A stretch of DNA of 46,110 nt, taken from sequence record SRR22947725_5645. One strand, given 5' to 3'. The stretch's first letter is position 1. Each line of letters starts with the position of its first letter. The notes below the pieces were generated by a model. The model did not search any database and was not told the DNA's origin. It saw only the letters and a list, made by a program, of their open reading frames with translations. A program made the translations under genes and the position numbers. Positions 20,012 to 46,110 of the stretch are shown piece by piece.

Positions 20012-20644
20012 TTAGATCCAACGGGTCGAGTTCGTCATGAGTGCGGATTGAAGGGCCATGAGCTTTTTAATGGCGGCGGGGTATGGCGCGCCACCTTCAT
20101 CAAGGGCCGCCTGTTCATGGCCGGCTTCATCGGCTTGCATTTGAGCAATGATTTCCCGAGTCCGATGGTCGCCCTCTGGAAGCTCCGCCAAGTGTCGGTC
20201 CAGATGCTTGCAAACCTCTTCTTCGGTTGCGGCAATAAAACCCAGACTCACCTTATCCCCCATTAATCCGGTTGCGGCGCCAACCATAAACGAGGCGCCA
20301 TACCAAAAGGGATTTAAATAACTGGTTTGTCCGTTGAGTTCGCGCAACCGCTCCTGGCACCAGACAAGGTGCTTTTGTTCATCTTCTGCGGCGTGCTCTA
20401 AATGCGCTTTGGTTGAATCATTACGGGCACTGAGCATTTGGCCGTGGTAGAGGCCTTGGGCGCAGACTTCACCGCAATGATTAACGCGCATGAGTTGTCG
20501 GGATTTTGATTGTTCGTCTGATGTTAATGCATCGTCTCGGCTGTCATATTCGAAGCTATTCGCGACGGGTAAGGTGCCGGTTAGGGTCTTCAGGCTGCGA
20601 TCGATGTGGCCCAGTAGCTGGTCAGTCCAGTGCAAGGCTCTCAT
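20012..20644 (-). CDS. coq7: Demethoxyubiquinone hydroxylase Coq7
   Basis: MRVNHCGEVCAQGLY plus di-iron ExxH motifs (EDEQKH, DEAGH). Confidence 0.93.
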   Translation of the reverse strand: MRALHWTDQLLGHIDRSLKTLTGTLPVANSFEYDSRDDALTSDEQSKSRQLMRVNHCGEVCAQGLYHGQMLSARNDSTKAHLEHAAEDEQKHLVWCQERLRELNGQTSYLNPFWYGASFMVGAATGLMGDKVSLGFIAATEEEVCKHLDRHLAELPEGDHRTREIIAQMQADEAGHEQAALDEGGAPYPAAIKKLMALQSALMTNSTRWI

Positions 20645-31345: not shown

Positions 31346-31596
31346 AGAGACAGCCTAGGGGTTTCAATCGGGGGTCAAGATATCACAGAATCCCAATGGG
31401 TGGTTCGACCTCCCGAGGCTGCCGCTGCGAAGTGCTGTTTTGCCGTATGGAAAAGGAGCGGGTACGCGCGGCATTGCGAGCGAGGGGGCGTCGGCCTACG
31501 CGTTAATTGACTGCAGGACACGGTTGGCGAACCGATGGATCCAGTCTCGTTTTAAAATAAGGTTTGACTTCCGCGACGCTCGATTAGAAGAGGCAT

Positions 31597-32334
31597 TCAA
31601 TCATCAGATTTTAAGTTGCGATCAAACAAATCATGCAATCGCTCCCAATGCCGCTCCGCACTGGGTTTGTGATAGATCGCACCGCGGCCAGGAAAGGCAA
31701 AGCCATGTTCGGCTCCCGGGTACCACTCTAATCGGTAGTTAATTTGGCTCTCTTTAAGATGGGCCTCAAGTGCATCGATCGTGTCCTTGTGTGCAAAGTG
31801 ATCAATCTCGGCGCAGGCGAAATACATCTCACCGGTGATGTTCTGAGCGGTCAGGTGAGGTGAGTCATCGCGTTTGGTGAGTAAGTTCGCGCCGTAGATC
31901 GAGGCGGCGCAGGCGATTCGTTCGGGGTAGCAGCCAGCGGCTTTGAACACAAAGGGTCCGCTCATGCAGTAGCCGACGGCGCCAATTCGGTCGCTGTTTG
32001 CGGGCTCAAAATGATCAACAAAGTCTAGAAGGGCAGTGGTGTCTTGCATGATTAAGTCAAGGGATAAGTGTTTGGTCATCTCAAACATGGCTTTCGTGGC
32101 CGCATCCGATCGGTCCCACACAAATTCTTTTGTTTTACGGTAGTAAAGATTTGGCAAGACCACAACGTAACCGGTCGTTGCAATTCTTCGCGCCATGTCG
32201 TGCAGTTCTTCGCGCTTGCCCGGGGCATCCATATAAAACAAGACCACGGGGAAGGGGCCGTTTTCTTCAGGATGGGTCACGAAGGTGTTCATGAGACCAT
32301 CTTGGGTTTGGATGTTTAGGTTGTGTTCGATCAT
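31597..32334 (-). CDS. Dienelactone hydrolase family protein
   Basis: GYCMSG nucleophile elbow, MDAPG and AEHGFAF motifs. Start placed at MIEHNL after AGGA. Confidence 0.9.
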   Translation of the reverse strand: MIEHNLNIQTQDGLMNTFVTHPEENGPFPVVLFYMDAPGKREELHDMARRIATTGYVVVLPNLYYRKTKEFVWDRSDAATKAMFEMTKHLSLDLIMQDTTALLDFVDHFEPANSDRIGAVGYCMSGPFVFKAAGCYPERIACAASIYGANLLTKRDDSPHLTAQNITGEMYFACAEIDHFAHKDTIDALEAHLKESQINYRLEWYPGAEHGFAFPGRGAIYHKPSAERHWERLHDLFDRNLKSDD

Positions 32335-32532
32335 CGTGGGGCATTCCTGAGTGTTTTTAGTTGAGGTGCTAGATTGAATAAGAACGTATTGAGTCGCGAA
32401 AGGAAATAGACGCCTAAGCCATTGTCTTTTTTTGTTTATGAATGGCTCATACATTTGCCCGCTGGGCACACTACTTTCTTTAAGAAAAACCCGCTTTAGG
32501 TCTCGTTACGTGACATACTCACTTTTATGAAT

Positions 32533-32562
32533 TTGACAGAAGAATTTCAATTTCTTAGGTCA
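32533..32562. promoter_or_regulatory. AT-rich divergent promoter region with TTGACA and an imperfect inverted repeat
   Basis: TGAC-ag-AAGAA-tttcaat-TTCTT-ag-GTCA (32534-32562) overlaps a perfect TTGACA (32533-32538) upstream of the cytochrome operon. Confidence 0.4.
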
Positions 32563-32582
32563 GTAATAGCTTAATATTTAAT

Positions 32583-34553
32583 TTGATAATATATAGATTG
32601 CTTAAAGAAACCCTTAAAATTTTTAGTCACTTAACGATTGTTTTGCTCGCAGCTTGTGGTGGCTCTGAGTCGGTCGAAAAGGCGCCAATGCCTCAGCCCT
32701 CGGCTCTGTCGCCTGATAACACCCTGGTGGCGGCAAAGCGGCTGTTGCCCGAAGACGTGGCCGGTATTTTAGACCAAGCGATTGAGCAGATGATTGCGCG
32801 TGGCGCTACAGGTGTTGTTAGTATTAGTGATCGAGTTGGCAATATTTTAGCAGTGTCTCAGCACGGGGTAAGTACTCGGTACGTACAGGTCGCGCCGGGG
32901 CCGGGCGCTGAGACGGCGGCCGGAAACGTTGGACTGCAGTCTGCGCTGGTGCCGAGAACGGCGGTTGCAATCTCAAAAGCGGTTACGGGCGCGTACGTCT
33001 CGTCGGGCGGGAACGCGTTTAGCACGCGCACAGCGAGCATGATAATCCAGCCTCACTTCCCGCCCACCACGTACACGGTCGGTTTGGAAAGTGGACCTTT
33101 ATTTGGATTGCAGTTTTCTCAACTGGCCTGTTCGGATGTGATGGCGTCAGCTGAAGCTGAGCTTGACCACAACATTGGGCCCAGAAAGTCGCCTCTGGGA
33201 ATGTCGGCAGATCCCGGCGGCTTCCCACTCTACAAGAAGGGGGTATTGGTGGGTGGAATTGGTGTTAGTACGAAAGCAGTCTATGGTTTTGACGATAATG
33301 TTGAAGATTTTGACGAAGATATAGATGAGGCCATTGCACTTTTAGCGTCGTCACACTTTCTGCCACCAGCTGAGATTCGCGCGGACAAAATTTCATTGGA
33401 TGGCACCTTGCTCAGGTATTCAGATGCACAGGTAGTAGAGCCCGCCAGTAATCTCGTTGATGCACTCGCGCAGTCTGATAAAGATTTGATCGACGCCAGT
33501 TTGATTTCAGTTCCGGGCTACTTTGATTCGGCTCAAGGTATCAAAGCCGGCCAACAGTATGGTCAAGAGGGTTCCGGCGTCAGGCCGTCCACGCTAGATG
33601 AGTTTGCGATTCCGGGTGCGTTTATTTTAAGTGATGGTGCAGGCAGGAATCGATTCCCAATAAAAGCTGCTGCCGATGGCAATGGCAATGAAATGCCCTT
33701 AACGCAGGATGAGGTCAGGCAGCTTCTCGAAACCGCTCATCAGACGATGTCAGCAGCACGCGGACAAATTAGACGACCGCTCAACCAGTCGGCACGCGTG
33801 TCCATGGTTGTTGTAGATACAACCGGCGAAATATTGGGGTTAGTGATCGGCTCAGACGCGCCGATTTTTGGGCTTGACGTTGCCGTTCAAAAAGCCCGTA
33901 CAGCGACTTTTTTCTCTAGTGAGTTGGCTGCCACCTATTTAGTTGGCTTGAACAGAGATGAAATTTCGGACTACGTGCAAAGGGTGCGTGTATTTCTGAA
34001 TGATCCGCAAGCCTTAACTGGGCAGCATGCCTTCTCAGATAGAGCGGGTGGAAATTTATCGAGGCCCTATTTTCCTGATGGCGAACTAGGGCGTCCCCAT
34101 GGGCCTTTGTCTAGACCGATTACGGAGTGGAGTCCGTTTGCCACGGGGTTGCAGGAAAGTCTCGTGCGGCCTGAAGTGGTGAAGCACTTGGGCTTTGTTG
34201 ATGGGACTTCTGATAAAGGAGCCGCGAATGAGTGCGTCGGGTTGTTAAATGAGGGTGGCGATATCCATTTGCTTGGAAACGGCATTCAGATTTTCCCAGG
34301 AAGCGTGCCCATTTATCGTGGATCAACTTTGATTGGTGGCATTGGTGTATCGGGCGATGGGGTTGACCAGGATGACATGATTGCGTTTTTAAGTGTGCAT
34401 CGAGTGGGAGAAGCTTTAGGCACGCTTGGGAATGCGCCGAAAGAAATCAGAGCGGACACGATTGAAGTCGATAACGTTCGGTTGCGGTACATCTCATGTC
34501 CTTTTAATCCTTTTCTCGACGAAAGTGAGCAAGAGGTTTGTAATGGTAAATAA
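32583..34553 (+). CDS. Predicted lipoprotein with two GlcG/HbpS-like heme-binding domains
   Basis: Lipobox LLAAC-GG. Two copies of the family signature: AISKAVT...GGFPLYKKGVLVGGIGVS and AVQKART...GSVPIYRGSTLIGGIGVSGDG. The TTG start is uncertain. Confidence 0.8.
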   Translation: MIIYRLLKETLKIFSHLTIVLLAACGGSESVEKAPMPQPSALSPDNTLVAAKRLLPEDVAGILDQAIEQMIARGATGVVSISDRVGNILAVSQHGVSTRYVQVAPGPGAETAAGNVGLQSALVPRTAVAISKAVTGAYVSSGGNAFSTRTASMIIQPHFPPTTYTVGLESGPLFGLQFSQLACSDVMASAEAELDHNIGPRKSPLGMSADPGGFPLYKKGVLVGGIGVSTKAVYGFDDNVEDFDEDIDEAIALLASSHFLPPAEIRADKISLDGTLLRYSDAQVVEPASNLVDALAQSDKDLIDASLISVPGYFDSAQGIKAGQQYGQEGSGVRPSTLDEFAIPGAFILSDGAGRNRFPIKAAADGNGNEMPLTQDEVRQLLETAHQTMSAARGQIRRPLNQSARVSMVVVDTTGEILGLVIGSDAPIFGLDVAVQKARTATFFSSELAATYLVGLNRDEISDYVQRVRVFLNDPQALTGQHAFSDRAGGNLSRPYFPDGELGRPHGPLSRPITEWSPFATGLQESLVRPEVVKHLGFVDGTSDKGAANECVGLLNEGGDIHLLGNGIQIFPGSVPIYRGSTLIGGIGVSGDGVDQDDMIAFLSVHRVGEALGTLGNAPKEIRADTIEVDNVRLRYISCPFNPFLDESEQEVCNGK

Positions 34554-36321
34554 CGTGCTGATTATTGCGCTGGTAATGCTGCTGCCGGCACAAGCCTTTG
34601 GTGCGCACGATCAGGATGAAAAATCGCTGGAAATCAGTAACGACTCCGTTTCTGTTGCTCAAGACCCTCGACCGAATCGATCTCGCCAAGATTTAGACCG
34701 GATGGCACCGCTCGATATTCGGTTGTTGCAACGCGAGGGCGGGATGTTAGAAGCCTTGCCTGATCGATGGCGAATCGTTGAGTCCATAGGTGTGAATGAG
34801 CGCTGGTGGGATCCTTATAACCAGAACACCTTGAAGGGCGATCGGCCGATACTAGGTTCCAAAGATTTATTTTTTGCATTGGGTTTGGTCTCAGATACGG
34901 TTGTCGAACCCCGAACCTTTCCGATTCCAGTAGGGGTTCAAACAACTGGTGACGCAGGGCAGTATGATCTTCACGGCGATGGTCAAAGCAATATCTTTAG
35001 TCAGACAATCATCGCGAGCCTATCACTGATTAAGGGGTCAACAACGTTCAAACCGCAAGATTGGGAATTTCGATTAACACCCGCATTTAATTTCAACCGG
35101 GTCGATATTAACGAGCGTCGAATTCTTTATGTGCAACCCAGTAAATTTGGGAAGAGAAGCCGAAATTTCGGCACTCTGCAAGAAGCCTTTTATGACTATC
35201 ATATAAGGAATGTTGGAAGTCGTTATGATTTTGACTCCGTACGGATAGGGATCCAACCATTTTCGAGCGACTTCAGAGGCTTTCTGCTTCAAGACGCCTT
35301 GATGGGTGTTCGGCTCTTTGGCAATCGCGATAACAATCGGTATCAATATAACCTAGCGTACTTTCGGCGGCTTGATAAAGATGTGAATAGTGGCTTGAAT
35401 GACTTGAGCACGCCGCTCCGTCGAGATCATATTTTAACGGCAAACCTGTATCGTCAAGACTTTCCGTCACCAGGCCTAACCAGCCAAATCTCAATTACCG
35501 CTAATCTGAATGAGGAAAACCGCAGGCAAGCAATTGATGCCAACGGCTTCCCCACTCGGCCTGCTTTGATCGGTGATTTGCGGCCTCGTCGCTACCACGT
35601 TACCTACCTGGGTTATTCCCTTGATGGAAGATACGGGAGACTCAATGTAGCGGGGTCTGCCTACGCAGCCTTTGGCCAGGATAAAAATAACCCGATGACT
35701 TCTCGGGCCAGTAAAATCAGGAGCCACTTTCTTGCCTTAGAACTCTCTGTGGATAACGACTGGCAGCGTTATCGATTGTCCGGGGTTTATGCATCCGGCG
35801 ATGATAATGTGTTTGATGACAAGGCATCGGGATTTGATGCGATCTTTGAGAATCCACTCATCGCTGGTGCAGATACCAGTTACTGGATGCGTCAAACGAT
35901 ACCCTTCGTAGGTGGTGGCCGAGGGATTGGCTTAAACGGCCGCAACGGGTTACTACCCTCGCTTCGTTCTTCCAAAGAGCAGGGGCAAAGCTTTTTTAGT
36001 AATCCTGGGTTGATGCTTTTAGGCGTGGGTGCTGATTTCGACCTGACGCCGAGCTTGCGGTGGTCTGTTAATTACAATCATCTTTGGTTCGACGAAGTTG
36101 ATGGGATAAGCCAGCTGAGGATGCAGAATGGCATCACCCGCAAGATCGGCGTTGATGCCTCAACCTCTTTAATCTATCGACCTGGCTTTATTCAAAATTT
36201 TGTTATTCGATTTTCTTATGCGGAGCTGACGCCGGGCGCCGGTTTTAGTCGTTTATTTGACAGTACTCGAGACGATGATCGATTTTACAGCAGCCTCCTT
36301 AATATTGTTATAAGTTATTGA
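34543..36321 (+). CDS. Predicted outer-membrane beta-barrel protein
   Basis: Signal peptide MVNNVLIIALVMLLPAQAFGA after AAGAGG; many alternating amphipathic strands; C-terminal beta-signal-like LLNIVISY with a terminal aromatic residue; no heme motifs. Confidence 0.7.
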   Translation: MVNNVLIIALVMLLPAQAFGAHDQDEKSLEISNDSVSVAQDPRPNRSRQDLDRMAPLDIRLLQREGGMLEALPDRWRIVESIGVNERWWDPYNQNTLKGDRPILGSKDLFFALGLVSDTVVEPRTFPIPVGVQTTGDAGQYDLHGDGQSNIFSQTIIASLSLIKGSTTFKPQDWEFRLTPAFNFNRVDINERRILYVQPSKFGKRSRNFGTLQEAFYDYHIRNVGSRYDFDSVRIGIQPFSSDFRGFLLQDALMGVRLFGNRDNNRYQYNLAYFRRLDKDVNSGLNDLSTPLRRDHILTANLYRQDFPSPGLTSQISITANLNEENRRQAIDANGFPTRPALIGDLRPRRYHVTYLGYSLDGRYGRLNVAGSAYAAFGQDKNNPMTSRASKIRSHFLALELSVDNDWQRYRLSGVYASGDDNVFDDKASGFDAIFENPLIAGADTSYWMRQTIPFVGGGRGIGLNGRNGLLPSLRSSKEQGQSFFSNPGLMLLGVGADFDLTPSLRWSVNYNHLWFDEVDGISQLRMQNGITRKIGVDASTSLIYRPGFIQNFVIRFSYAELTPGAGFSRLFDSTRDDDRFYSSLLNIVISY

Positions 36322-36328
36322 TATAAAT

Positions 36329-39300
36329 ATGATTTTTAAATTTTTATTATTGTTTTTGATGCAACTGGTTGTGGTCAGTTCGTGCCTAGGCGCAAGCAAA
36401 GGAATGGGTAAGGCGTTCCCCCGAAGCTATCCTGAGATGGTGCCAGCGCCTTTCTCTCAAAACGCTGCGACCGCCCAGCTGAAAACAGCGGGGTGTCAAA
36501 CCTGCCACGCGAAAGCTGAGCATAAAACCATGCACAAGGCGCCAAGCGTTGTGCTGGGGTGTACTGACTGTCACGGTGGGAACGCCAATGTTCAGTGGGC
36601 AGGCGATCTTTGGGTTGCTCCGGAGACTGCGGTAGCGTCGCATGCTTCGCCCGCGCTTGATCCTGATAAAGGCCATGCAGGCAAAAGTCTCGCAGGTAAG
36701 GATCATCATGGTGACGATCATTATGACGCCCATGGGAATGACCACGATTACCCGTCTGGTTACAAAGCGGCAATGGACGCGGCCCATATCCTACCAACCT
36801 ACCCGAGTGTTTGGCCGGGTAGTGAGAATCCTAAACGATCCTTTGCGAAACTGTTGAAAGAGTCGCCGGAGTTCGTCCGTTTCATGAACCCATCAGATTA
36901 TCGTGTTGTGCGGATGGCCTGTGGGGCTTGTCATCTGGATACCATTGAAGCTGCTGAGAGATCTTTGATGGCAACTGGCGCCATGCTTTGGGGTGGGGCT
37001 TCTTACAATAACGGTATCTTGCCTTACAAAAACTATATCCTTGGCGAGGCGCATACGCAGGAAGGGCTGCCTGCAATGTTGACGAGCCCGACTGACCAGG
37101 ACGGGACGCTCAGCGAAAAAGAAAAGCTTAGAGGTGCGTTGCCCTCTTTGTTGCCTTTGCCTGCTTGGCAGGTGGTGCCGCCGGCAGATGTTTTTCGCGT
37201 TTTTGAAAAAGGCGGGCGGAATATCAACACACAGTTTCCTGAAATCGGACTGCCCAATGCCACTGGGTTGTTGCAGCGGCTAGAAGAACCTGGGCGCCCG
37301 GACATCAGACAATCTAACCGAGGACCTGGCACCGGGTTAAGAGTGGCGATTCCTGTCTTGAACATACACAAGACCAGGTTGAATGACCCTTTCACAACGA
37401 TGATGGGCACGAACGATCAGCAAGGAGACTATAGAGCCAGTGGGTGTGCGTCCTGCCACGTCGTTTATGCGAACGATCGAGAGCCGAGACACAGCTTAAC
37501 GTATGCTAAATATGGTCGGGATGGCAAAAGCTTCACCTCTGACGTCACCATTGACAAAAATGAATCGGGACACCCGATAGAACACGTGTTCACGTCCGCG
37601 ATACCCACCTCTCAGTGCATGACGTGTCACATGCATCAACCCAATATATTTCTTAATTCTTATCTCGGTTATACGATGTGGGATTATGAATCCGATGCCC
37701 CGTCGATGTGGCCGGAAGCGCAGGTTTACCCTACAAGTGACGAGGCACGAGCCGTGCTCGATAGGAATCCGGAAGGCGCGGCGCCCAGAGGTAAGTGGGC
37801 AAGTGAAGACTTCTTAAGGGATGTCTACGACCTGAATGCGACGCTGAAAGATACTCAATTTGCTGACTATCATGGGCATGGATGGAATTTTAGGGCGGTA
37901 TTCAAACGGGATAGAGCTGGGAACCTGTTAGATGAGGCAGGGAACAAAGTCGCTAACGATGACCCTGAAAAGTTTCGCAAAGAGGGTGAGGCGAAGTTTG
38001 TGGAAATCGGCGTCAATCCCGGTAAAGCCGTGCACCTGATGTCAATTCATGCCGAGAAGGGCATGCAGTGTGTGGACTGTCACTTTAGCCAAGATGGTCA
38101 TGGCAATGGGTTTATTCATGGAGAGGTCGCAAACGCGGTACAGATCGGTTGTAAAGATTGTCATGGTACGACCGAAAGTTATCCGACCTTAATGACGTCA
38201 AATGTTGCTGCGCCGACGGGTGGTGAGGATTTGAGTCTGATTAGGAACTCAGATGGTAAAAAGCGCTTTGAATGGATTGAGTCCGCGGGCGTGAGGACTC
38301 TGATTCAGCGTTCTGTTTTGGACCCCAACCTTGAGTGGGAAGTTTCGTTAACCCGAGATGCAGTTGATCCAACACACGGAAGCTTTAACGAAAAGGCGGC
38401 GGCCGCGAAGTTGGTTCAGTCGTCCAAGAAGGAAAGTAGTGGCGAATCAGGTTATGAGCAGATCGCACATGGGGACAACATGACCTGTTATAGCTGTCAT
38501 TTGTCTTGGTCAACCTCATGTGGCGGCTGTCACTTGCCCATAGAAGCGAACTGGAAAACTGAGAGCCACAAGTATGATGTGGGCGAGACTCGAAATTTTG
38601 CCACATACAATCCACAAGTTGCCCGTGATCAAATCTTTCAGTTGGGCCGGCATCAAACAACGAAAGGGAATGTGATTGCGCCGATTCGGTCGACGTCGGC
38701 GCTGCTTCTCAGTTCTACCAATATCAATCGAGAAAGAATTTACGTTCAGCAACCACCGGTATCCGCCGCGGGTTTCTCATCGCAGGCATTTGCGCCTCAT
38801 TTTCCCCATACCGTTCGAAAAGAAGAGACGCGGGTTTGCTCGGATTGTCATTTGTCGGCAAATGGCGATAACAATGCAATCATGGCTCAGACCCTACTTC
38901 TAGGAACTAACTTCATCAATTTTGTTGGACTCCACAGCTATGCCGGAACAGAGAACGGTCTTTGGGCCGTGAGAGTGACCGAATACGAGGAGCCGCAAGC
39001 TGTTTTTGGGTCTTACCTCCATCGTTACGCTTATCCGGATTATTATGAAAATCATGTTTCTGATAATGATAGAGAGTTGAAGAGCTGGGTTCGCGGTACG
39101 GCATTCGATCGAGACAATGGCTATTCGGGTGAGACCGGCGCGCTGGAGGAAATCAGCAACGTTTTTCAGGGCGCTGACGGTGCGGTCCAATGCCTTCAGC
39201 ATCGAGGAGAGTACTTGTATGTTGCAGAGGGGCGTGGCGGCTTTAGAGTTTATGATATCGCTAACATCGCGAATAAATCGATTTCGGAACGGATTGTTCG

Positions 39301-40345
39301 AGCGCCTTTTTCACCGCTAGGCCATAACGCGCATGTTGGATCGAAGCAGGCAACCTGCTTCGCAATTGGCACGACACAACCAGTGCATCCCCCTAAGAAC
39401 ACCAAGTTTATGCAAGAGGTGAATCAAGAGCAGAGCATGCATCCGTTGTTTAGCTATGCTTTTGTTACGGATGCTGAAGAGGGGTTGATTGTCGTCAATA
39501 TCAACACGTTTGGTGATGGCGATCCGCTCAATAACTTCTTGGAGCGCGCTCTAACTTGGAACGAAAACGGCTTGTTGGATGGCGCTCGGTTTATTTCACT
39601 TTACGGCAGCTTTGCCTACATTGTTGCGGATCAAGGGTTGATAACCCTGAATATTGATAACCCGCTCAAGCCGGTTGTGACGTCGGTCATTCGGCTAGCC
39701 GGTATGAGATCGTTTGCAACTCAGTTTCGTTATTTGTTTTACACCTCTGAAACAGGCCTTGGCGTGGTCGACATTACTGATCCCAGCCAGCCTGTTCTGG
39801 TGAAGGATAGTGCGGTTGCACTGGCTGATGCTCGCAAGCTTTATCTTGCGAGAACCTATGCGTATGTTGCTGCGGGTGAAGATGGGCTTGCGATCATCAA
39901 CATTGAAAAACCAGAGGCACCTGTTTTGGATCAGATGTTCGATGGCGAAGGTCAGCTAAAAGACACATCCGATATTGTTATAGGAACGACTAACGCGTCG
40001 TTGTTTGGATATGTGGCCGATGGTGACTTTGGGTTTAAGTTACTTCAGTTGACCAGCCCCTCCTCACAACCGAATTTCTATGGCTACTCACCCCAACCAA
40101 AGCCAGAAGTCATCGGGTGGATGCCGAGTAAGTCTCGGGTACTTTCGATTTCCAAGGGCCTCGACCGTGATCGGGCCGTTGATGAATCCGGTAATCAAAT
40201 TGCCGTCTTCGGAAGATTGGGTTCTAGACCGTTCAATCGCGAAGAAATGGAAGGCCTTTTTAAAAGGCTGGATGGGCAGATGTACTTTGTTAATGATAGT
40301 GATTCCACTGTTGTAGATGCGCCTAGGCCGGCGGGAGCGAACTAG
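36329..40345 (+). CDS. Decaheme c-type cytochrome fused to an LVIVD-repeat beta-propeller
   Basis: Signal peptide; 10 CxxCH motifs (CQTCH, CTDCH, CGACH, CASCH, CMTCH, CVDCH, CKDCH, CYSCH, CGGCH, CSDCH); C-terminal repeats such as YLYVAEGRGGFRVYDI and YAYVAAGEDGLAIINI. Confidence 0.88.
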   Translation: MIFKFLLLFLMQLVVVSSCLGASKGMGKAFPRSYPEMVPAPFSQNAATAQLKTAGCQTCHAKAEHKTMHKAPSVVLGCTDCHGGNANVQWAGDLWVAPETAVASHASPALDPDKGHAGKSLAGKDHHGDDHYDAHGNDHDYPSGYKAAMDAAHILPTYPSVWPGSENPKRSFAKLLKESPEFVRFMNPSDYRVVRMACGACHLDTIEAAERSLMATGAMLWGGASYNNGILPYKNYILGEAHTQEGLPAMLTSPTDQDGTLSEKEKLRGALPSLLPLPAWQVVPPADVFRVFEKGGRNINTQFPEIGLPNATGLLQRLEEPGRPDIRQSNRGPGTGLRVAIPVLNIHKTRLNDPFTTMMGTNDQQGDYRASGCASCHVVYANDREPRHSLTYAKYGRDGKSFTSDVTIDKNESGHPIEHVFTSAIPTSQCMTCHMHQPNIFLNSYLGYTMWDYESDAPSMWPEAQVYPTSDEARAVLDRNPEGAAPRGKWASEDFLRDVYDLNATLKDTQFADYHGHGWNFRAVFKRDRAGNLLDEAGNKVANDDPEKFRKEGEAKFVEIGVNPGKAVHLMSIHAEKGMQCVDCHFSQDGHGNGFIHGEVANAVQIGCKDCHGTTESYPTLMTSNVAAPTGGEDLSLIRNSDGKKRFEWIESAGVRTLIQRSVLDPNLEWEVSLTRDAVDPTHGSFNEKAAAAKLVQSSKKESSGESGYEQIAHGDNMTCYSCHLSWSTSCGGCHLPIEANWKTESHKYDVGETRNFATYNPQVARDQIFQLGRHQTTKGNVIAPIRSTSALLLSSTNINRERIYVQQPPVSAAGFSSQAFAPHFPHTVRKEETRVCSDCHLSANGDNNAIMAQTLLLGTNFINFVGLHSYAGTENGLWAVRVTEYEEPQAVFGSYLHRYAYPDYYENHVSDNDRELKSWVRGTAFDRDNGYSGETGALEEISNVFQGADGAVQCLQHRGEYLYVAEGRGGFRVYDIANIANKSISERIVRAPFSPLGHNAHVGSKQATCFAIGTTQPVHPPKNTKFMQEVNQEQSMHPLFSYAFVTDAEEGLIVVNINTFGDGDPLNNFLERALTWNENGLLDGARFISLYGSFAYIVADQGLITLNIDNPLKPVVTSVIRLAGMRSFATQFRYLFYTSETGLGVVDITDPSQPVLVKDSAVALADARKLYLARTYAYVAAGEDGLAIINIEKPEAPVLDQMFDGEGQLKDTSDIVIGTTNASLFGYVADGDFGFKLLQLTSPSSQPNFYGYSPQPKPEVIGWMPSKSRVLSISKGLDRDRAVDESGNQIAVFGRLGSRPFNREEMEGLFKRLDGQMYFVNDSDSTVVDAPRPAGAN

Positions 40346-42769
40346 ATGGTCGAAAAATACGATGTTGTAATTGTTGGATCTGGTCCTGCGGGAATTAGTG
40401 CTGCATGCCATGCTGCAAGTTTATCGATGAGCCATATGCTGGTTGAGAAAACGGATCATCTATCCGATACGATTTTTAAATACCAGAAAGGCAAACATGT
40501 CATGGCAACCCCTGAGGTGCTGCCATTAAGAAGCGACATAGCCTTTGCTGCGGGCAAGCGTGAGCTGGTATTGGATACTTGGGGAGAGGCTGTCGAGAAA
40601 ATGAGCGCCCAGGTCCGCTTTGGCTTTGATGTTACAGAAATTACAGGGCAAAAAGACGATTTTCTCGTGACCGCTGCAAATGGCGACACAGTAAGGTGTC
40701 GAAATATCGTGCTCGCTTTGGGCAACCAGGGCAATCCTAATCTGATTGGATTCCCTGATGATGGATCGGTCATCGTTGAATATCAGCTTGACGATCCGCT
40801 CGAGATTTTAGATGAAAAGGTTGTGGTTCTCGGCGGTGGTGACGCCGCTATTGAGAATGCGATGGGGTTGGGTCAAGACCCTGACCAAGGAAATGAGGTG
40901 ACTATTGTGCAGCGCCGCGCAGAGTTTGCGAGGGCTAAAAAAGCAAATGTTGATGGGCTGATGGCGGCCGCCTCAAATGAATTGCTCTGTATTATGACGG
41001 AAGCGGTGCCGCAGGAAATAAAAGGTGGCATCGTTCGGATAGAAGGCCGGGATGGTGAACTCAATGTCCCTGCGGATCGACTCATCGCAAGACTGGGTTC
41101 CGCACCCCCAAGAAAGCTTCTGGAGTCCTTTGGCATCGAATTTACGGGCCAGGAGAAAGAAGCCCTCCCAAAAATTTCAGCACGATTTGAGTCAAGCATT
41201 GCTGGAATGTATGTTGTGGGTGCAATTGCGGGCTACCCCCTGATTAAAAATTGTATCAATCAAGGATTTGATGCGATCGAGTATATTAACGGCAACCTTG
41301 ATTTGGCTTCTGTAGACGAGCCTTTGTTGGCAGCCAAGTTTGAGTTCCTTCCGGTGCAACACACTGTTGAGGAGTGGCTTGCCCTTATTCCGAAGGCCAT
41401 CGACTTGCTCTCGCCATTGTCGCCATTGCAGTTGCGAGACTTTCTTCTTGAAACGAGTATGCGGCATGCCAAAGCGGGTGAGGTTATCTTTGAGAAGGGC
41501 GCAGCAGGGTCTTCAGTCTTCGCTGTTTTTGCCGGTGGCATTAAAATATTAATTGAGACGGGTGAAGACCTTTTAGAGATTCCTATGGGTGCCGGTCAAA
41601 TGTTTGGAGAAGTCGGCCTTATTTCGGGTCGGCCAAGAGGCAGCACCGTCGTCTCCAGTGAATCTACGATCCTTTTAGAAATACCGCGAACAGCCTTGTT
41701 GAAATTGATGTTAAGTCAGGAGCGCATAAAAAATTATGTCGATGACCTGGTCGCAACGAGGATGTTCTCTCAAGTCTTTGGTCCCTCGCTTTCCGACGAA
41801 AGTAAAAAAATGATACTTGCTGCGAGCGAATTAATTACCTTGTCGCCTAACCAATACCTCATTACAGAAGGTGATACAAAGAGTGATGCTTATTTGATTC
41901 GATCGGGTTCCATGGTGGTTGAAAGAGAGCTCATGGGGTCAACTGTTTTTGTTACTTACCTGCAGGCCGGGGCTGTCGTGGGCGAGATGGCCGCCTTGAT
42001 GGACGGGTCAAGAAATGCCTCGGTCAAGGCGACCGTAAAGTCAGAAGTGCTAAAAATCCCCAAAGAAGCGCTGATAGCAGCCTTAGCCAGTAGCGATGAT
42101 GTGCGCGCGTTAGTCGAAAGTAGGATGGAAAACCGAATTCAGGTCAACGATTTTATCACATCAAATAAAACACAATTTTCATCAGCGGTTGAAATGAATT
42201 CGGCGATTGCAGGGTTTGTTTTCGAAAACGGATTGGGAGAAGCGACCGACGTTTTAGTTATTAACGAAACCTTATGTATTGGCTGTGATTATTGCGAGAT
42301 TGCGTGTGCAGAATCCCATAATGGGATAACGCTGCTGAATCGAGAGGCGGGTACAACTTTTGAAAAGCTCCACATACCAACATCATGTCGTCATTGCGAG
42401 CAGCCGCAATGTATGACCGATTGTCCTCCAAATGCGATCACGCGTTCGGTCGATGGTGAGGTCTTCATTGCAGATACGTGTATCGGTTGCGGAAATTGCG
42501 AGCGAAACTGCCCCTACGATGTCATTAAGATGGAAAGAGCCCCAGAACCGCGGTCAAACTTTCTAAGTTCGGTGCTTTTTGGCTTGGGCCCAGGTATCGG
42601 TCACCGTGATAGGCGAGCGGTGAAAGTTGAGACGTCGAGTCCAAAGTTGGCGCGAAAATGTGACATGTGTAAAGGCATTGATGGCGGGCCTGCGTGTGTC
42701 AGAGCCTGTCCCACTGGTGCTGCCGCCAGGGTTTCCGTAAATGAGTTCATAAACTTTAACGAGCTGTAA
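40346..42769 (+). CDS. FAD/NAD(P)H oxidoreductase fused to two cNMP-binding domains and a 4x[4Fe-4S] (DmsB/NrfC-like) domain
   Basis: GSGPAG and GGGDAA..QRR Rossmann motifs; FGEVGLISGRPRGSTV and VGEMAALMDGSRNASV cNMP cassettes; four Cys clusters (CIGCDYCEIAC, CRHCEQPQCMTDCP, CIGCGNCERNCP, CDMC..PACVRACP). No signal peptide. Confidence 0.88.
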   Translation: MVEKYDVVIVGSGPAGISAACHAASLSMSHMLVEKTDHLSDTIFKYQKGKHVMATPEVLPLRSDIAFAAGKRELVLDTWGEAVEKMSAQVRFGFDVTEITGQKDDFLVTAANGDTVRCRNIVLALGNQGNPNLIGFPDDGSVIVEYQLDDPLEILDEKVVVLGGGDAAIENAMGLGQDPDQGNEVTIVQRRAEFARAKKANVDGLMAAASNELLCIMTEAVPQEIKGGIVRIEGRDGELNVPADRLIARLGSAPPRKLLESFGIEFTGQEKEALPKISARFESSIAGMYVVGAIAGYPLIKNCINQGFDAIEYINGNLDLASVDEPLLAAKFEFLPVQHTVEEWLALIPKAIDLLSPLSPLQLRDFLLETSMRHAKAGEVIFEKGAAGSSVFAVFAGGIKILIETGEDLLEIPMGAGQMFGEVGLISGRPRGSTVVSSESTILLEIPRTALLKLMLSQERIKNYVDDLVATRMFSQVFGPSLSDESKKMILAASELITLSPNQYLITEGDTKSDAYLIRSGSMVVERELMGSTVFVTYLQAGAVVGEMAALMDGSRNASVKATVKSEVLKIPKEALIAALASSDDVRALVESRMENRIQVNDFITSNKTQFSSAVEMNSAIAGFVFENGLGEATDVLVINETLCIGCDYCEIACAESHNGITLLNREAGTTFEKLHIPTSCRHCEQPQCMTDCPPNAITRSVDGEVFIADTCIGCGNCERNCPYDVIKMERAPEPRSNFLSSVLFGLGPGIGHRDRRAVKVETSSPKLARKCDMCKGIDGGPACVRACPTGAAARVSVNEFINFNEL

Positions 42770-42798
42770 TGCCCAACGATAGAAGACGACGATAAGCT

Positions 42799-43647
42799 AT
42801 GCCAAATGTAATTTCTCAGAGATTCGAATCGTTCCTAAGCTTTAATCGCTACCGATACCTTTGGGTCGCTTTGGCTTTGATGGTTGTGGCGATTGGCTGT
42901 TACGTTTTTGCCCCGGTTAAAACAGAGCATAATGGGGGAACCTGGTTCGGTTATACCCTTGGGGTTATCAGTGTAGGCCTGATGGTTTGGTTGGCGGCCC
43001 TAGGTTTGCGTAAAAGATTGATCCGGCCCGGTAAATGGAGCCAAAAAGGAAGGACTTCAGCCCATGTCTACCTGGGCATTGCACTGGCCTTGATCGCAAC
43101 GCTGCATACGGGGTTTCAGTTTGGGTGGAATGTCCACACGGCTGCTTTTGGCGGGATGATGATTGTGATCGTTTCTGGATTTATTGGTGTGGCGATTTAC
43201 GCAACGGTACCCTCAAAGCTGTCAGAAAATTCAGGAAGTCAGACGTTTGTCGAGCTAAAGAGCCAATTGGATCAGGTGAATCTCCAGTTGGATAAAGTGT
43301 TATTCGAATTAGATGGACCACCACTTAAGCTTGGCGAGCGAGTTTTAAAGACAGATGGCGTTCTTGTTAGTCAGCTCAGAGCCCTATTTTCTCAAGTGGC
43401 GTTGCCTGTTTTCGAGCAATTCCGGGACAGTATCCAGCAGGCGCGCGATGCTGGTGCGATTGAAAGAGATTTGAGTTTAACCGTTTTGCGATTAACCCAA
43501 TCAAAAGCGGCGTTGGTGAAGAGAATAAGGCTGCATCAAAGATATAAGGCCCTCATCAGTATATGGCTTGCAGTGCACGTGCCATTTACGTTCTTTTCAA
43601 TGCTTCTGGTCGGGATCCATATCTTCGCCGTTTTCTACTACTGGTGA
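42799..43647 (+). CDS. Inner-membrane protein, putative di-heme cytochrome b (ferric-reductase-like)
   Basis: About 5 TM segments; two TM helices each carry a His pair spaced i,i+14 (HVYLGIALALIATLH and HVPFTFFSMLLVGIH). Confidence 0.7.
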   Translation: MPNVISQRFESFLSFNRYRYLWVALALMVVAIGCYVFAPVKTEHNGGTWFGYTLGVISVGLMVWLAALGLRKRLIRPGKWSQKGRTSAHVYLGIALALIATLHTGFQFGWNVHTAAFGGMMIVIVSGFIGVAIYATVPSKLSENSGSQTFVELKSQLDQVNLQLDKVLFELDGPPLKLGERVLKTDGVLVSQLRALFSQVALPVFEQFRDSIQQARDAGAIERDLSLTVLRLTQSKAALVKRIRLHQRYKALISIWLAVHVPFTFFSMLLVGIHIFAVFYYW

Positions 43648-43655
43648 TCTCGACT

Positions 43656-45407
43656 ATGCAAATAAAACTGACAACAATTATTTATCGCCAGAGCGGTCGT
43701 CAAACTCGCAAGGTCGAAACGTTTGAGGGACCAAAGTTGTCTTTTGGGCGTAGTGCAAGCAACGACGTTGTCCTGTCGGATCGCTCGCTGCCGGTAAAGT
43801 GCTTTGACTTAGACATTGTGGACGGTGTCGTGGCCCTTAGGGCAACCGATAATCAGACTAAAGTGGCGATTAACGGTATTGATCTGAAGCGTCCCAAGTT
43901 TTTATCGGGTGAATCGCAAGCGGAATTCAAGGTTGGACAATATTCGATCTCACTGGGCCTTTCTGCTGATCAGGATATGGTCTTGGTTAGCATCGATCCA
44001 GGCGGGAGTGTGGGCTACACGCCACGCTATGGTCCTGGTTTCAGAGTCCGGTCGAAGTTTGCGAACCTTTTAAATGCTCGTTTTCTGTCCTGGGCAGGCG
44101 TTTTTGCTTTGTTCGCACTATTTGCGTGGTACCCGTTTTCATCTGAGGTCGCATCAACCACCACCTTATCAGGGGATGTTTCAGATCAGGCGCCGGAGGT
44201 GCTCTGGGCCTCTGGCAAAATATCGTCGGCGCACCATAATTTTGCAGAATCATGCGATCAGTGTCATGTCGAGCCATTCGAGTCTGTCACCAGTGAAACC
44301 TGCTCAAGTTGTCACGAGGATTTACCAGAGCACGCCTCAGCGCTGTTGCTTTCCCATTCCAAGCCGATGTCTGAGGGGCTAGAGGCGCTTGAAGGATTGG
44401 CGAAGGCCGAGTTTGGGATTGAAGAAGGCGGTTGTGCCAGTTGTCACAAGGACCACAATGGCGATGAGGGTGTGTTATCGATGCCAGACGGGCTGTGTCA
44501 GACCTGTCACGAAGGGTTGGATAAGCGATTGGCCGGGCACATGGGCGCGGTCGGCTTCGATGATGTCGGCGCCTTTTCTACGCACGGTGACTTTAAATAC
44601 CTATCGGTTGATAGATCCGGCGATGAAATCACCTTAGTGCGCTCTGTACTGAGCCCTTCTAAAAGGGATCAAAGCGGCATCAGTTTTTCTCATGAGCAAC
44701 ACCTCGCCGACTCAGGACTTGTGTGGGAGATGGCTGAAGAGCAGACGCTTACTTGTGCGAGTTGTCATGCGTTAGACGTCTTAAAGACAAATTTCAAACC
44801 GGTCGAGATGGAAACGGGTTGTGGTGGCTGTCATGATCTTGCTTGGGGCGAGGATGACCTTGGTCAGGTTTTCCGACTGGAACATAGCTCTTTGGCTGAA
44901 GCTCGATATGTTTTGGCGCGAGAGCTTTCGTTAGCGTCACTGAATGACCCTGGTTCGGTTAGGCCTAACCGGGCTGACGGAAACAGGGGTGTTGAAAATC
45001 TCGACGCGAAAGTAACAGAAATCCTGCTGGGAGAAACCGGCTTGTGTCTGGAGTGTCATGAATCTGCTCTGAATGATGATGGTACGAGGCTCGACGTTGT
45101 AACGATTGAGGATTTTGCGGTTCATGCAACCTTCGATCACAGCGTCCATAAGCTAGAACCGCTTCAGTGCGACAGTTGTCATGATGCTGAAGGGTCCACC
45201 GAGGCAGAGGACGTCTTGATGCCGAAGATTGAGGTGTGTTCGACTTGTCATGCTGACCCGGGCGTCAGTCACCGGATTGAATCTGATTGCCTGATGTGTC
45301 ACGAGTATCATGCAACCCCGCCAGTTTTTCCGAAACTGAGTTCGGGGCTTGATGCGTTCGCCGCGCGACTCGTTCTCGATCCTAACCGAGGAGGAAGCGA
45401 AAAATGA
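43656..45407 (+). CDS. Membrane-anchored decaheme cytochrome c with N-terminal FHA-like domain
   Basis: LSFGRSASNDVVL..VAING FHA-like region, one TM helix (FLSWAGVFALFALFAWYPF), then 10 CxxCH motifs plus c3/c7-type FSHEQH and FDHSVH. Start moved to ATG 43656. Confidence 0.85.
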   Translation: MQIKLTTIIYRQSGRQTRKVETFEGPKLSFGRSASNDVVLSDRSLPVKCFDLDIVDGVVALRATDNQTKVAINGIDLKRPKFLSGESQAEFKVGQYSISLGLSADQDMVLVSIDPGGSVGYTPRYGPGFRVRSKFANLLNARFLSWAGVFALFALFAWYPFSSEVASTTTLSGDVSDQAPEVLWASGKISSAHHNFAESCDQCHVEPFESVTSETCSSCHEDLPEHASALLLSHSKPMSEGLEALEGLAKAEFGIEEGGCASCHKDHNGDEGVLSMPDGLCQTCHEGLDKRLAGHMGAVGFDDVGAFSTHGDFKYLSVDRSGDEITLVRSVLSPSKRDQSGISFSHEQHLADSGLVWEMAEEQTLTCASCHALDVLKTNFKPVEMETGCGGCHDLAWGEDDLGQVFRLEHSSLAEARYVLARELSLASLNDPGSVRPNRADGNRGVENLDAKVTEILLGETGLCLECHESALNDDGTRLDVVTIEDFAVHATFDHSVHKLEPLQCDSCHDAEGSTEAEDVLMPKIEVCSTCHADPGVSHRIESDCLMCHEYHATPPVFPKLSSGLDAFAARLVLDPNRGGSEK

Positions 45408-46110
45408 AACGATTTCTGTTAGGTCTGCTGTGTATCGCTAGCTTTTCAATGTCTGCAAATTTGCAAGCGGATCAAAAAATCAGTCAGCAGGATCAGCATC
45501 TAGGCGTAAACAGTTGTGGCGGATCAATGTGTCATGGTCGACAGCATTCGACAGGCGATGTGGTTTATCAGAACGAAATTGCGATATGGCAGTCGTCTCA
45601 TAGTTATCTGGGTGCGCATCATAGGGCTTACCAAGTTTTAAATGGGGCGTTAGGGAAAGCGATTACGCGCAATATGGGTTGGGAAGATGCCTCGAAACGC
45701 GCGGAGTGCTTGGGGTGTCATACGGACTTAGTCCCAGAAAGTGAGCAAGGGTTGTACTACCAAATAACGGATGGCGTTAGTTGCGAAAGTTGCCATGGGG
45801 GCTCAGAGCGTTGGCTGAAATTGCATTATGGCGCGTCTTGGGATGGCAGTCGTCACGCCGATATGGGGTACGTGGATCTATCCAATGTTAATTTAAGGGC
45901 GCAAGTCTGCTTGGATTGTCATTTGGGCTCGAATAATGGGAATCAGTTTGTAACTCATGAAATGATGAGTGCAGGACACCCAAGGCTTGCGTTCGAATTA
46001 TCAATTTTCGAAGATCTTCAAGCCCACTATGAAGTCGATCAGTCTGAGCAAGGGCAAGATATCGATGTTATGACCGCTCAAGTTTGGGCATTGGGTCAAA
46101 TTACGGCGGC
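45404..46110 (+). CDS. Cytochrome c554-like multiheme protein (partial, runs off the window)
   Basis: Not in the ORF track; translated by hand. GAGGAGG RBS, ATGA overlap, signal peptide MKRFLLGLLCIASFSMSANLQA, motifs CGGSMCH, CLGCH, GVSCESCHG and CLDCH, then AGHPRL. No stop before the window end. Confidence 0.85.
   Translation, partial: MKRFLLGLLCIASFSMSANLQADQKISQQDQHLGVNSCGGSMCHGRQHSTGDVVYQNEIAIWQSSHSYLGAHHRAYQVLNGALGKAITRNMGWEDASKRAECLGCHTDLVPESEQGLYYQITDGVSCESCHGGSERWLKLHYGASWDGSRHADMGYVDLSNVNLRAQVCLDCHLGSNNGNQFVTHEMMSAGHPRLAFELSIFEDLQAHYEVDQSEQGQDIDVMTAQVWALGQITA

Follow-up and report, generated by a model that had tools for sequence, protein, structure and literature searches.

A conserved seven-gene cluster encoding a candidate cyclic-nucleotide-gated electron supply and a large decaheme–LVIVD protein

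A gene cluster designated 'PCC4', described in 2017 (PMC5566968), comprises genes for a porin, for 4-, 5-, and 10-heme cytochromes of the periplasm, for a protein with five transmembrane (TM) segments, an iron–sulphur (Fe-S) protein matching PF13247, and additional redox proteins, and was proposed to mediate Fe(II)-oxidizing extracellular electron transfer to quinone. According to the same report, the 5-TM protein of PCC3 and PCC4 carries SGXXG on TM4 and WX3HX13H on TM3 and TM5, and was compared with NOX/FRE proteins and cytochrome b. The ptdABCDEFG genes reported in a preprint (10.1101/2023.11.21.568154), evidently the same cluster as PCC4 from their description, encode flavin adenine dinucleotide (FAD)/NAD(P), cyclic nucleoside monophosphate (cNMP)/4Fe-4S, and ferric-reductase-like components, and their function was left open. 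A third report (10.64898/2026.01.22.701106) described an FHA-TM-nonaheme cytochrome of Ferrigenium accompanied by proteins of the 5-TM and 4Fe-4S types, and stated that FHA–multiheme fusions were previously unreported. Here, we describe seven co-oriented genes (g1 to g7; positions 32583-46110, + strand) in a 46,110-nucleotide stretch of sequence record SRR22947725_5645 (hereafter, the window). Going by the text of these reports, the inner half of this cluster is of a kind already described three times, and its outer half, which encodes an HbpS lipoprotein, a β-barrel, and an LVIVD decaheme, is new within the literature searched, supplementary tables excepted.

The seven genes form one operon-like cluster of two co-inherited modules, namely module B (g4-g5-g6), which encodes a cytoplasmic flavo-Fe-S protein, a 5-TM protein, and a membrane-anchored decaheme cytochrome, and module A (g1, g2, g3, and g7), which encodes the three outer components and a c554-like cytochrome. 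We propose, with a probability of roughly 55%, that the cluster provides a quinone-independent, cNMP-gated supply of electrons from NADPH to the periplasm, where they would feed g3 as the terminal multiheme reductase.

Comparison with described systems

As far as the PCC4 and ptd reports describe them, the clusters share with the window a cytoplasmic protein with FAD/NAD(P), cNMP, and Fe-S (PF13247) domains, which is split into PtdC and PtdE in ptd but fused in g4. They also share the position of the Fe-S protein gene upstream of the membrane-protein gene (in the window, g4 directly before g5), a 5-TM protein with SGXXG and paired-His motifs (g5), a periplasmic decaheme cytochrome (g6), a c554-like tetra- or pentaheme cytochrome (g7), and an outer-membrane protein encoded within the cluster. 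At two PCC4-like loci (L100 and L102), the identities to the window proteins are 43% (g4), 33% (g5), 25-26% (g6), and 31-34% (g7). The outer components are different: PCC4/ptd encodes an NrfA-like pentaheme cytochrome (PtdA) and its own outer-membrane protein (PtdB), whereas the window encodes a decaheme–LVIVD protein, an AlgE-like barrel, and a double-HbpS lipoprotein. By hhalign, no homology was found between g2 and the 542-amino-acid (aa) PCC4-like outer-membrane protein (probability, 0.4) or between g3 and the 593-aa PCC4-like pentaheme protein (4.7). Because the window contains no PtdA-like pentaheme gene and homology to the L100 pair could not be detected for either g3 or g2, the cluster is regarded as a variant of PCC4/ptd and not as a strict member.

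The 'NHC' protein of Ferrigenium straubiae, compared here by its description, likewise combines FHA, one TM, and a multiheme domain, and its gene lies beside those for 5-TM and cytosolic [4Fe-4S] proteins in the order of g4-g5-g6. It differs in possessing nine hemes (ten in g6) and in its location beside nirK and an SHP-like gene, and its description includes neither an LVIVD protein nor a barrel nor an HbpS gene. The text of the three reports, as distinct from their supplements, mentions no LVIVD decaheme, HbpS lipoprotein, or AlgE-like barrel. Literature searches for LVIVD with multiheme or cytochrome, multiheme with β-propeller in Sphingomonadales, and multiheme with HbpS returned nothing relevant; the ptd names appeared in one preprint only, and the PCC4 porin–cytochrome papers retrieved contained no experiments. 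The initial view of this cluster as one without a name, put forward from the letters of the window alone (the original prediction), thus stands for the outer half, for which no paper was found, and falls for g4-g5-g6 and the c554-like gene, which match PCC4/ptd and 'NHC'.

The cluster also resembles MtrCAB, MtoAB, PioAB, and the Geobacter porin–cytochrome systems in combining multiheme cytochromes in series with an outer-membrane barrel gene, but it lacks a barrel of MtrB size, an MtrA/DmsE decaheme above threshold, and a CymA/NapC-type quinol dehydrogenase; no NapC/NirT-type Pfam match was obtained with the cluster proteins, and the predicted input is NAD(P)H and not quinol. With NADPH oxidases (NOX) and FRE proteins, the cluster would share a cytoplasmic NADPH flavoprotein, two b hemes, and HX13H pairs on TM3 and TM5, a comparison drawn in PMC5566968 for the PCC3/PCC4 protein. 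In the window, however, the proteins are separate, the flavoprotein has the thioredoxin reductase (TrxR) fold and not the FNR fold, four Fe-S clusters intervene, the helices of g5 number five instead of six, and Ferric_reduct was matched only below threshold in the g5 family.

Conservation and co-inheritance of the two modules

Judged by sequence identity, g3 is the most conserved component of the cluster. Across 80 loci, representing 79 other species (mostly Alphaproteobacteria) and L003 from a 97%-identical relative of the window, the identities to the window proteins were 56-65% for g3, 49-63% for g2, 47-54% for g1, and 47-51% for g4 (full-length matches), and those for g5, g7, and g6 were 36-43, 31-46, and 24-30%, respectively. 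Searches using tblastn placed g2 beside g3 at 77 of these loci, g1 at 72, g7 at 68, g6 at 55, g4 at 52, and g5 at 51; several of the loci run into contig ends. Because the same genes adjoin g3 at most of the loci, the arrangement is not a product of chance, and the recurrence in other genomes on which the original prediction depended was found. In the usual alphaproteobacterial layout, g7-g1-g2-g3 lie on one strand and g4-g5-g6 lie convergently on the other; at L006, L009, L012, and L043, all seven genes run in the same direction with g4 first, a circular permutation of the order in the window. Three of the latter loci contain a stretch of ~1.6 kb between g7 and g1 that none of the query proteins matched (L006, 4280-5983; L009, 4610-6243; and L043, 4580-6203), which may hold a further gene.

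The two modules are inherited together even where they are apart. In five of five genomes whose g3 locus has no module B in the surrounding 10 kb, an orthologue of g4 (47-51% identity) was found elsewhere, full-length or nearly so in four and split over two contigs in G004. Co-occurrence was counted in 502 genomes, i.e. an even sample of 251 of the window's class and 251 of the class to which the Sphingomonadaceae genome G003 belongs. In the window's class, g3 was found in 12 genomes and g4 in 14, including all 12 g3 carriers (G045, as yet unpublished, among them); in the other class, 13 genomes carry g3, all of which contain g4, and one full-length g4 and one ferredoxin fragment were found without g3. 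In total, g4 is present in 25 of 25 g3-positive genomes, and full-length g4 is present in only 3 of the 477 g3-negative genomes. This co-inheritance of the two halves in ~5% of the sampled alpha- and gammaproteobacterial species genomes (25/502) is new within the literature searched.

Two g3-negative genomes, G135 and G383, carry a c554-like gene, g4, g5, and g6 together with genes for a five-heme protein and a different 540-aa outer-membrane protein, as in PCC4/ptd. The occurrence of module B and a c554-like gene with a different outer cassette suggests that they constitute a general supply unit for alternative terminal proteins. In a third, G243, g4 stands alone beside a giant kinase/GAF/histidine-kinase protein and a chemoreceptor. 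At this locus (L101; G243:C30, 1445-12110), which lacks g5, g6, and g3, the g4 homologue (40% identity) follows a 2039-aa Ser/Thr-kinase/AAA/GAF/histidine-kinase/receiver protein, the chemoreceptor, and a DUF1451 zinc-ribbon protein, a context from which the flavo-Fe-S-cNMP protein may have other uses. The gammaproteobacterial genome G161 contains two full copies each of g3 (57-58% identity) and g4 (44%), one pair on each of contigs C12 and C14.

The g3 family is very large. Of the 8,000 90%-identity clusters scored, at least 7,846 match at E≤1e-3, and g3 is present in at least 598 species genomes (598 of 600 stretches confirmed, among the matches listed); in a library clustered at 50% identity, the matching representatives, which include many fragments, number 3,168 at E≤1e-3 and 815 at E≤1e-30. 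The source names listed for the family are hypothetical protein, LVIVD repeat protein, and multiheme c-type cytochrome, none of which indicates a function. Named carriers, among the matches listed, belong to the Sphingomonadales, Caulobacterales, Parvularculaceae, Glaciecola, and marine Pseudomonadales, which we take to be mostly aerobic heterotrophs. As a lead only, a language-model atlas places look-alike clusters in Verrucomicrobiota, Planctomycetota, and Acidobacteriota as well. One g3 homologue (G219:C1:351606-355046) contains a single in-frame TGA, which may represent a sequencing error, a pseudogene, or recoding.

Predicted components from the cytoplasm to the outer membrane

Re-derivation of the open reading frames bore out the seven co-oriented genes of the original prediction and every one of the junctions that it had given. 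Its count of at least 24 heme-c motifs was reproduced as well, with 10 CXXCH in g3, 10 CXXCH in g6, and 3 CXXCH plus 1 CX4CH in the part of g7 within the window, and its list of parts with a compartment for each is supported, as described below (all coordinates are on the + strand unless indicated).

g4 (40346-42769; 807 aa) starts 0 bp after g3 and encodes a protein in which a signal peptide and a TM segment were looked for and not found. Its Pfam matches are Pyr_redox_2 (residues 5-307), two cNMP_binding, and Fer4_11/Fer4_7. The FAD/NAD(P)H domain (40358-41266; residues 5-307) has the TrxR/YpdA fold without the CXXC redox disulphide and scores 118 bits against the NCBIfam YpdA family model, under the cut-off. 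The second nucleotide motif of this domain, GGGDAA followed by QRRAEFARAK, is one that we take to resemble the NADPH site of thioredoxin reductase. The tandem cNMP domains (41468-42121; approximately residues 375-592) were matched in two stretches (cNMP_binding, 110.6 bits), and their phosphate-binding motifs show conservation of at least 95% among homologues (FGE...R431 in one and GEMA...R556-x-A558 in the other). The ferredoxin domain (42254-42745; Fer4_11, PF13247, 41.9 bits against a cut-off of 26.2) contains four Cys motifs with 16 invariant Cys residues (644/647/650/654, 681/684/689/693, 712/715/718/722, and 772/775/784/788). A profile search of PDB sequences returned YpdA/Bdr (7a7b), the tandem cyclic-nucleotide-binding (CNB) domains of PKA-R and PKG, and four-cluster ferredoxins of the HycB/ArrB type.

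g5 (42799-43647) begins 29 bp after g4 and encodes a candidate di-heme cytochrome b with five hydrophobic segments by hydropathy analysis. Four His residues are invariant in 29 sequences and form two HX13H pairs, H89/H103 on TM3 and H260/H274 on TM5; SGxxG is located on TM4 (S126-G130) and WX3H on TM5 (W256-x3-H260). On TM3, the window copy has Arg in place of the Trp of the family consensus. This copy matched no Pfam family above threshold and gave no Ferric_reduct (PF01794) match at E≤1; sub-threshold matches were obtained among the homologues to Ni_hydr_CYTB (27 of 29; best E, 1.4e-6) and Ferric_reduct (12 of 29; best E, 6.8e-4).

g6 (43656-45407), located 8 bp downstream of g5, encodes a cytoplasmic FHA-like domain, one TM helix (approximately residues 143-165), and a periplasmic ten-heme domain, and the 10 CXXCH motifs are also present in 52 of 52 homologues. 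The FHA-like domain was matched by PF00498 in 27 of 32 homologues and by a YscD-type FHA-like model in all 32, and the window copy gave a sub-threshold FHA-like match only (Yop-YscD_cpl, 24 bits against 33.2). The copy in the window retains G31-R32 but carries C49 where at least 90% of the homologues carry His, a replacement that makes a phosphothreonine input doubtful and takes away from the FHA signalling input proposed for this protein at the outset. The domain may instead be a docking module.

The assembly of oxidoreductase, cytochrome b, and FHA–decaheme that the original prediction put forward for structural modelling was represented by g5 plus g6(1-200) with the g4 Fe-S domain as partner. 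It received a score of 0.37 (best of three controls, 0.01), with contact agreement of at least 61% and a partner predicted local distance difference test (pLDDT) value of at least 60. The calibration covered 78 solved complexes, of which 51 attained the mark, and 108 mismatched pairs, of which 2 did; scores of 0.60 or below accounted for only 5 of the 78 solved complexes and for all 4 passing mismatches (of 180). The model thus lends weak support to a g4-g5-g6 complex.

g7 (45404-46110) overlaps g6 by 4 bp and runs past the window end, so that its 5′ part (235 of 436 codons) is present. The downstream sequence was taken from the relative G001 (98% identical DNA), in which the full-length gene (L002, 16218-17528, - strand) encodes 436 aa with a fifth heme motif. 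The protein, a predicted periplasmic cytochrome, matches Cytochrome_C554 (PF13435; 35.5 bits against 20.8), and one CX4CH plus four CXXCH are found in 64 of 64 homologues. Because it scores far below the cut-off of the NCBIfam equivalog for Nitrosomonas c554 (16.2 bits against 400), it is c554-like and not c554 itself; full-length g7 gave no match in the PDB sequence search at E≤0.1. A tetratricopeptide repeat protein (e.g. L055, 20408-21358, +) flanks module B at 39 of the 80 loci, many of them alphaproteobacterial, and resembles the CcmH/CycH and NrfG heme-lyase accessory subunits below cut-offs; it is a speculation that it serves the CX4CH motif of g7.

The outer half begins with g1 (32583-34553; 656 aa from the TTG at 32583), which matches HbpS-like/GlcG (PF03928; 58.8 bits against 25) in two stretches, contains a lipobox (LLAAC) in its translation, and weakly matched EfgA, a protein of the GlcG family, among PDB sequences (6bws; E, 2.4e-5). 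In most homologues, the signal peptide ends in Cys and leads into a linker rich in Gly, Ser, and Pro. The start of g1 is uncertain, as in-frame TTG codons are present at 32583 and 32598, and the shorter form has the more typical lipoprotein signal peptide (MLKETLKIF...LLAAC).

g2 (34543-36321; 592 aa) overlaps g1 by 11 bp and encodes a protein with a signal peptide and the C-terminal sequence ...VISY that matched no Pfam or NCBIfam family. Its AlphaFold2 (AF2) model (mean pLDDT, 62.5) contains 18 strands by DSSP, and in a Foldseek search of the PDB, AlgE was the best match (E, 1.2e-14; TM-score by target, 0.60-0.71), followed by MOMP and OprD/Occ channels. The modelled 18-strand fold is thus AlgE- and OprD/Occ-like (E, 1e-14 to 1e-8), but g2 shares only 9-14% sequence identity with these proteins and has an extra N-terminal region of ~100 residues and a conserved loop (residues 433-485); the likeness in fold is no indication of substrate. 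This loop (approximately 35839-35997; ...FENP.FAGADTSYW.RQTIPF.GGGR...LRSSKEQGQSNFNNPG) is among the most conserved stretches of the protein, has a pLDDT below 50, and may be a plug or a partner-binding element.

g3 (36329-40345; 1338 aa), which follows g2 after a 7-bp gap, encodes a secreted protein with a ten-heme domain (approximately residues 1-900) and a C-terminal LVIVD β-propeller. The 10 CXXCH motifs are also found in 78 of 79 homologues, giving ~134 residues per heme. LVIVD (PF08309) was matched at 53.9 bits (cut-off, 20.2), in four stretches at a relaxed E-value, and by 12 of 12 homologues scanned, and c7/c3-type cytochrome domains were matched as well. A relaxed Pfam scan of these 12 homologues matched no enzyme family, returning only generic families of multiheme and propeller proteins; the best NCBIfam match was ExtM (66.8 bits against a cut-off of 800).

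The closest named record to the window (97% identity, among the matches listed in the species-genome scan) is a metagenome-assembled genome labelled uncultured Pseudomonadales bacterium. The genes upstream of g1, i.e. a divergent dienelactone hydrolase gene, an MFS transporter gene, a kinase-like gene, an SDR gene, rpoD, and dnaG, are unrelated to the cluster. Downstream in G001, a co-oriented gene for a glucose-6-phosphate dehydrogenase (G6PD)–cNMP fusion begins 96 bp past g7, followed by a gap of ~0.8 kb and panB/panC. The window contains a second cNMP receptor, a 339-aa cNMP-binding protein (20641-21660, - strand; 81.7 bits) encoded beside COQ7, 11 kb upstream of the cluster.

A promoter and terminator scan of 32300-46110 found no excess over shuffled sequences (promoter-like, 9 against 13.8 ± 3.6; terminator-like, 19 against 15.2 ± 4.5) and is therefore uninformative on operon structure. 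Metatranscriptome contigs from three studies (at least 95% identity) cover the cluster and bridge all six junctions: g1/g2 and g2/g3 (X1, 34188-36625), g3/g4 (X1, 39185-40386), g4/g5 (X1, 41586-43175), g5/g6 (X11, 43113-43729), and g6/g7 (X1, 44920-46110). Such libraries may contain DNA, and a contig across a junction is not proof of a single transcript; run X7 yielded 18-35 kb contigs that are DNA-like in appearance. In run X1, the bins of the divergent dienelactone hydrolase gene (31500-32475) are without cover, which is not evidence and was not used. The bridging contigs hint that the cluster is expressed in seawater.

Electron flow, gating, and alternative explanations

In the proposed mechanism, the FAD domain of g4 would oxidize NAD(P)H, presumably NADPH as judged from its nucleotide motif, and pass the electrons from FAD through four [4Fe-4S] clusters. 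The electrons would then cross the inner membrane over two b hemes of g5 and be taken up by the periplasmic ten-heme domain of g6, itself held by a one-helix anchor, and g7 would relay them from g6 to g3 in module A. g3 is predicted to work with the g2 channel and the g1 lipoprotein as a terminal reductase or envelope electron outlet rather than as a wire, with g2 acting as a substrate or product channel or as an anchor for g3 rather than as a sheath. The tandem cNMP domains would make the flow through g4 conditional on cyclic nucleotide. Because the quinone pool would be bypassed, reducing power would be spent and no energy conserved. The chain from NAD(P)H through FAD, Fe-S, and heme b to heme c set out in the original prediction is upheld as a reading, its heme b step and its direction being probable. 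The envelope-spanning conduit with an MtrB-type sheath that accompanied it fares worse: with 18 strands and a likeness to AlgE, MOMP, and OprD, the g2 model makes a decaheme threaded through the barrel unlikely, and the conduit is unproven.

The gating is suggested by several observations that agree with the cyclic-nucleotide input first proposed. The conserved CNB Arg residues are accompanied by a Metallophos gene resembling class-III cNMP phosphodiesterases at 57 of the 80 loci, located directly after g6 at most alphaproteobacterial ones (SpdA, E 2e-42, and CpdA, E 9e-23, both below cut-offs), and by a CHASE2 adenylate/guanylate cyclase at 30 of 80. In the window's lineage, G6PD (TIGR00871, 570 bits) with a fused C-terminal cNMP domain is encoded beside the cluster in G001 (L002, 14139-16121, - strand) and at L003 (20470-22452, +). 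From these features together, electron flow is apparently switched by cyclic nucleotide. An orthologue of the G6PD–cNMP fusion (~70% identity) occurs in G241 on contigs other than that of the cluster. The fusion was rejected as a general partner, as it adjoins the cluster only in G001 and L003 and does not occur on the cluster contig in five other gammaproteobacterial carriers, the fused form being seen otherwise only in G241.

Outward flow is favoured because the cytoplasmic end is a low-potential NAD(P)H- and ferredoxin-type protein, because the NADPH-producing G6PD with its own cNMP domain adjoins the cluster in the window's lineage, and because the reverse would be uphill from Fe(II)/Mn(II) and against the membrane potential. 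The protein in the terminal place in ptd, moreover, is described as NrfA-like, a reductase type (10.1101/2023.11.21.568154). The higher identity of g3 (56-65%, against 24-30% for g6 and 31-46% for g7) and its ~134 residues per heme would fit an enzyme better than a wire. Taken with the conservation of g2 and its 18-strand model, these features point to g3 as a terminal enzyme served by its own channel in the outer membrane, and a wire facing minerals is the poorer fit. Candidate substrates of g3 are small N-, S-, or O-oxidants, Fe(III)/Mn(IV), and O2.

Several points weigh against this proposal. Neither the phosphodiesterase gene nor the cyclase gene occurs in the window, and the G6PD–cNMP neighbour is lineage-specific (G001 and L003). 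Heme b in g5 is assigned from motifs, with all Pfam models below threshold, and the complex score for g4-g5-g6 is weak and was obtained without our own alignments. The profile of g3 gave 0 matches to PDB sequences at E≤1, and the AF2 model of its heme domain (34-sequence alignment) was unusable (pLDDT, 40.2; predicted template modelling score, 0.31). As the fold model failed, the label 'reductase' draws on the conservation of g3 and on analogy with the NrfA-like PtdA (10.1101/2023.11.21.568154). The localization of g3 is ambiguous, since the window copy has a lipobox-like VSSC but the alphaproteobacterial consensus lacks Cys at this position. The PCC4, ptd, and Ferrigenium 'NHC' reports, as far as their text goes, are themselves sequence-based descriptions (PMC5566968, 10.1101/2023.11.21.568154, and 10.64898/2026.01.22.701106).

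Among the alternatives, an extracellular conduit of the MtrCAB/Pcc type, with g3 at the surface, g2 sheathing a cytochrome, and Fe(III)/Mn(IV), humics, or electrodes being reduced, would account for the barrel gene directly before the large multiheme gene, the ~25 hemes in series, the lipobox-like VSSC of the window g3, and the weak matches of g3, g6, and g7 to MtrC/MtrF-domain Pfam families, all below cut-off. MtrB has 26 strands, whereas the g2 model has 18 and is AlgE/OprD-like. An MtrA/DmsE-type decaheme was not found (TIGR03508, 23.8 bits for g6 and 18.4 for g7 against 192.2), no quinol dehydrogenase was named by Pfam or NCBIfam (NrfH TIGR03153, 16.9 for g3 and 18.7 for g7 against 134.2, both within soluble multiheme regions), the electrons apparently come from NAD(P)H with no energy conserved, the carriers are presumably aerobic heterotrophs, and g3 is far more conserved than the wire-like g6. 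Although the authors of the PCC4 and ptd reports proposed a porin–cytochrome function for related clusters (PMC5566968 and 10.1101/2023.11.21.568154), such a conduit is unlikely here. Inward flow, by which g3 would oxidize Fe(II), Mn(II), or a low-potential donor and electrons would reach quinone via g5 or NADP+ via g4, appears very unlikely. In nitrifiers, c554 is the electron acceptor of an oxidizing enzyme, which speaks for this direction. It was also the direction proposed for PCC4, whose 5-TM protein was taken to be a quinone-active cytochrome b, and PCC4 was found in iron oxidizers (PMC5566968). Against it stand the cytoplasmic partner, a flavoprotein of the NAD(P)H type that bears four low-potential clusters, and the NADPH-producing G6PD neighbour in the window's lineage; furthermore, NADP+ reduction from Fe(II)/Mn(II) is strongly uphill, inward transfer opposes the membrane potential, as established bioenergetics holds, and no carrier is labelled a lithotroph or metal oxidizer in its record title, among the matches listed.

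A special case of outward flow would be a NOX-like oxidant generator that reduces O2 to superoxide or peroxide at or beyond the outer membrane under a cNMP switch. The order of an NADPH flavoprotein followed by a transmembrane di-heme unit with two HX13H pairs, the allosteric second-messenger input, the co-located cNMP-fused G6PD as NADPH supply, and the spending of reducing power without energy conservation are all in keeping with it, and the HbpS family is linked to redox-stress sensing. The sequence, however, gives no sign of O2 as the acceptor, 25 c hemes and a highly conserved 1338-aa g3 exceed the needs of O2 reduction, and g4 has the TrxR fold and not the FNR fold of NOX, Ferric_reduct being weakly matched in 12 of 29 g5 homologues; we regard this function as distinctly unlikely. 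That the two halves are unrelated neighbours adjoining by coincidence is scarcely credible: they do form separate convergent operons at most alphaproteobacterial loci and lie far apart in some genomes, but the presence of g4 in every g3-positive genome sampled, its near absence from the others (two of the three full-length copies accompanying a PCC4-like cassette), and the tight junctions in the window all argue against coincidence.

Returning to the proposed cNMP-gated supply, an extension of it, unlikely in our estimate, is a second-messenger-gated 'respiratory burst', in which a sensor cyclase would raise cNMP and open the path from NADPH through FAD, four [4Fe-4S] clusters, two b hemes, and 25 c hemes to discharge at the cell envelope via g3, with cNMP also switching on the cNMP-fused G6PD in the window's lineage. 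If true, it would be a possible source of extracellular superoxide or of reductive Fe/Mn mobilization in aerobic heterotrophs.

Should the proposed supply itself hold, common marine, freshwater, and soil heterotrophs would send NADPH electrons across the inner membrane without quinones and under allosteric second-messenger control, so that bacteria would have an equivalent of NOX logic assembled from other components. The g3 family, very large and without a solved relative or an assigned function, can be approached by genetics in culturable carriers, which include named Sphingobium, Qipengyuania, Tsuneonella, Erythrobacter, Sphingomonas, and Hyphococcus strains. One supply module serving at least two terminal cassettes would unite three isolated reports of unknown cytochrome clusters into one testable system.

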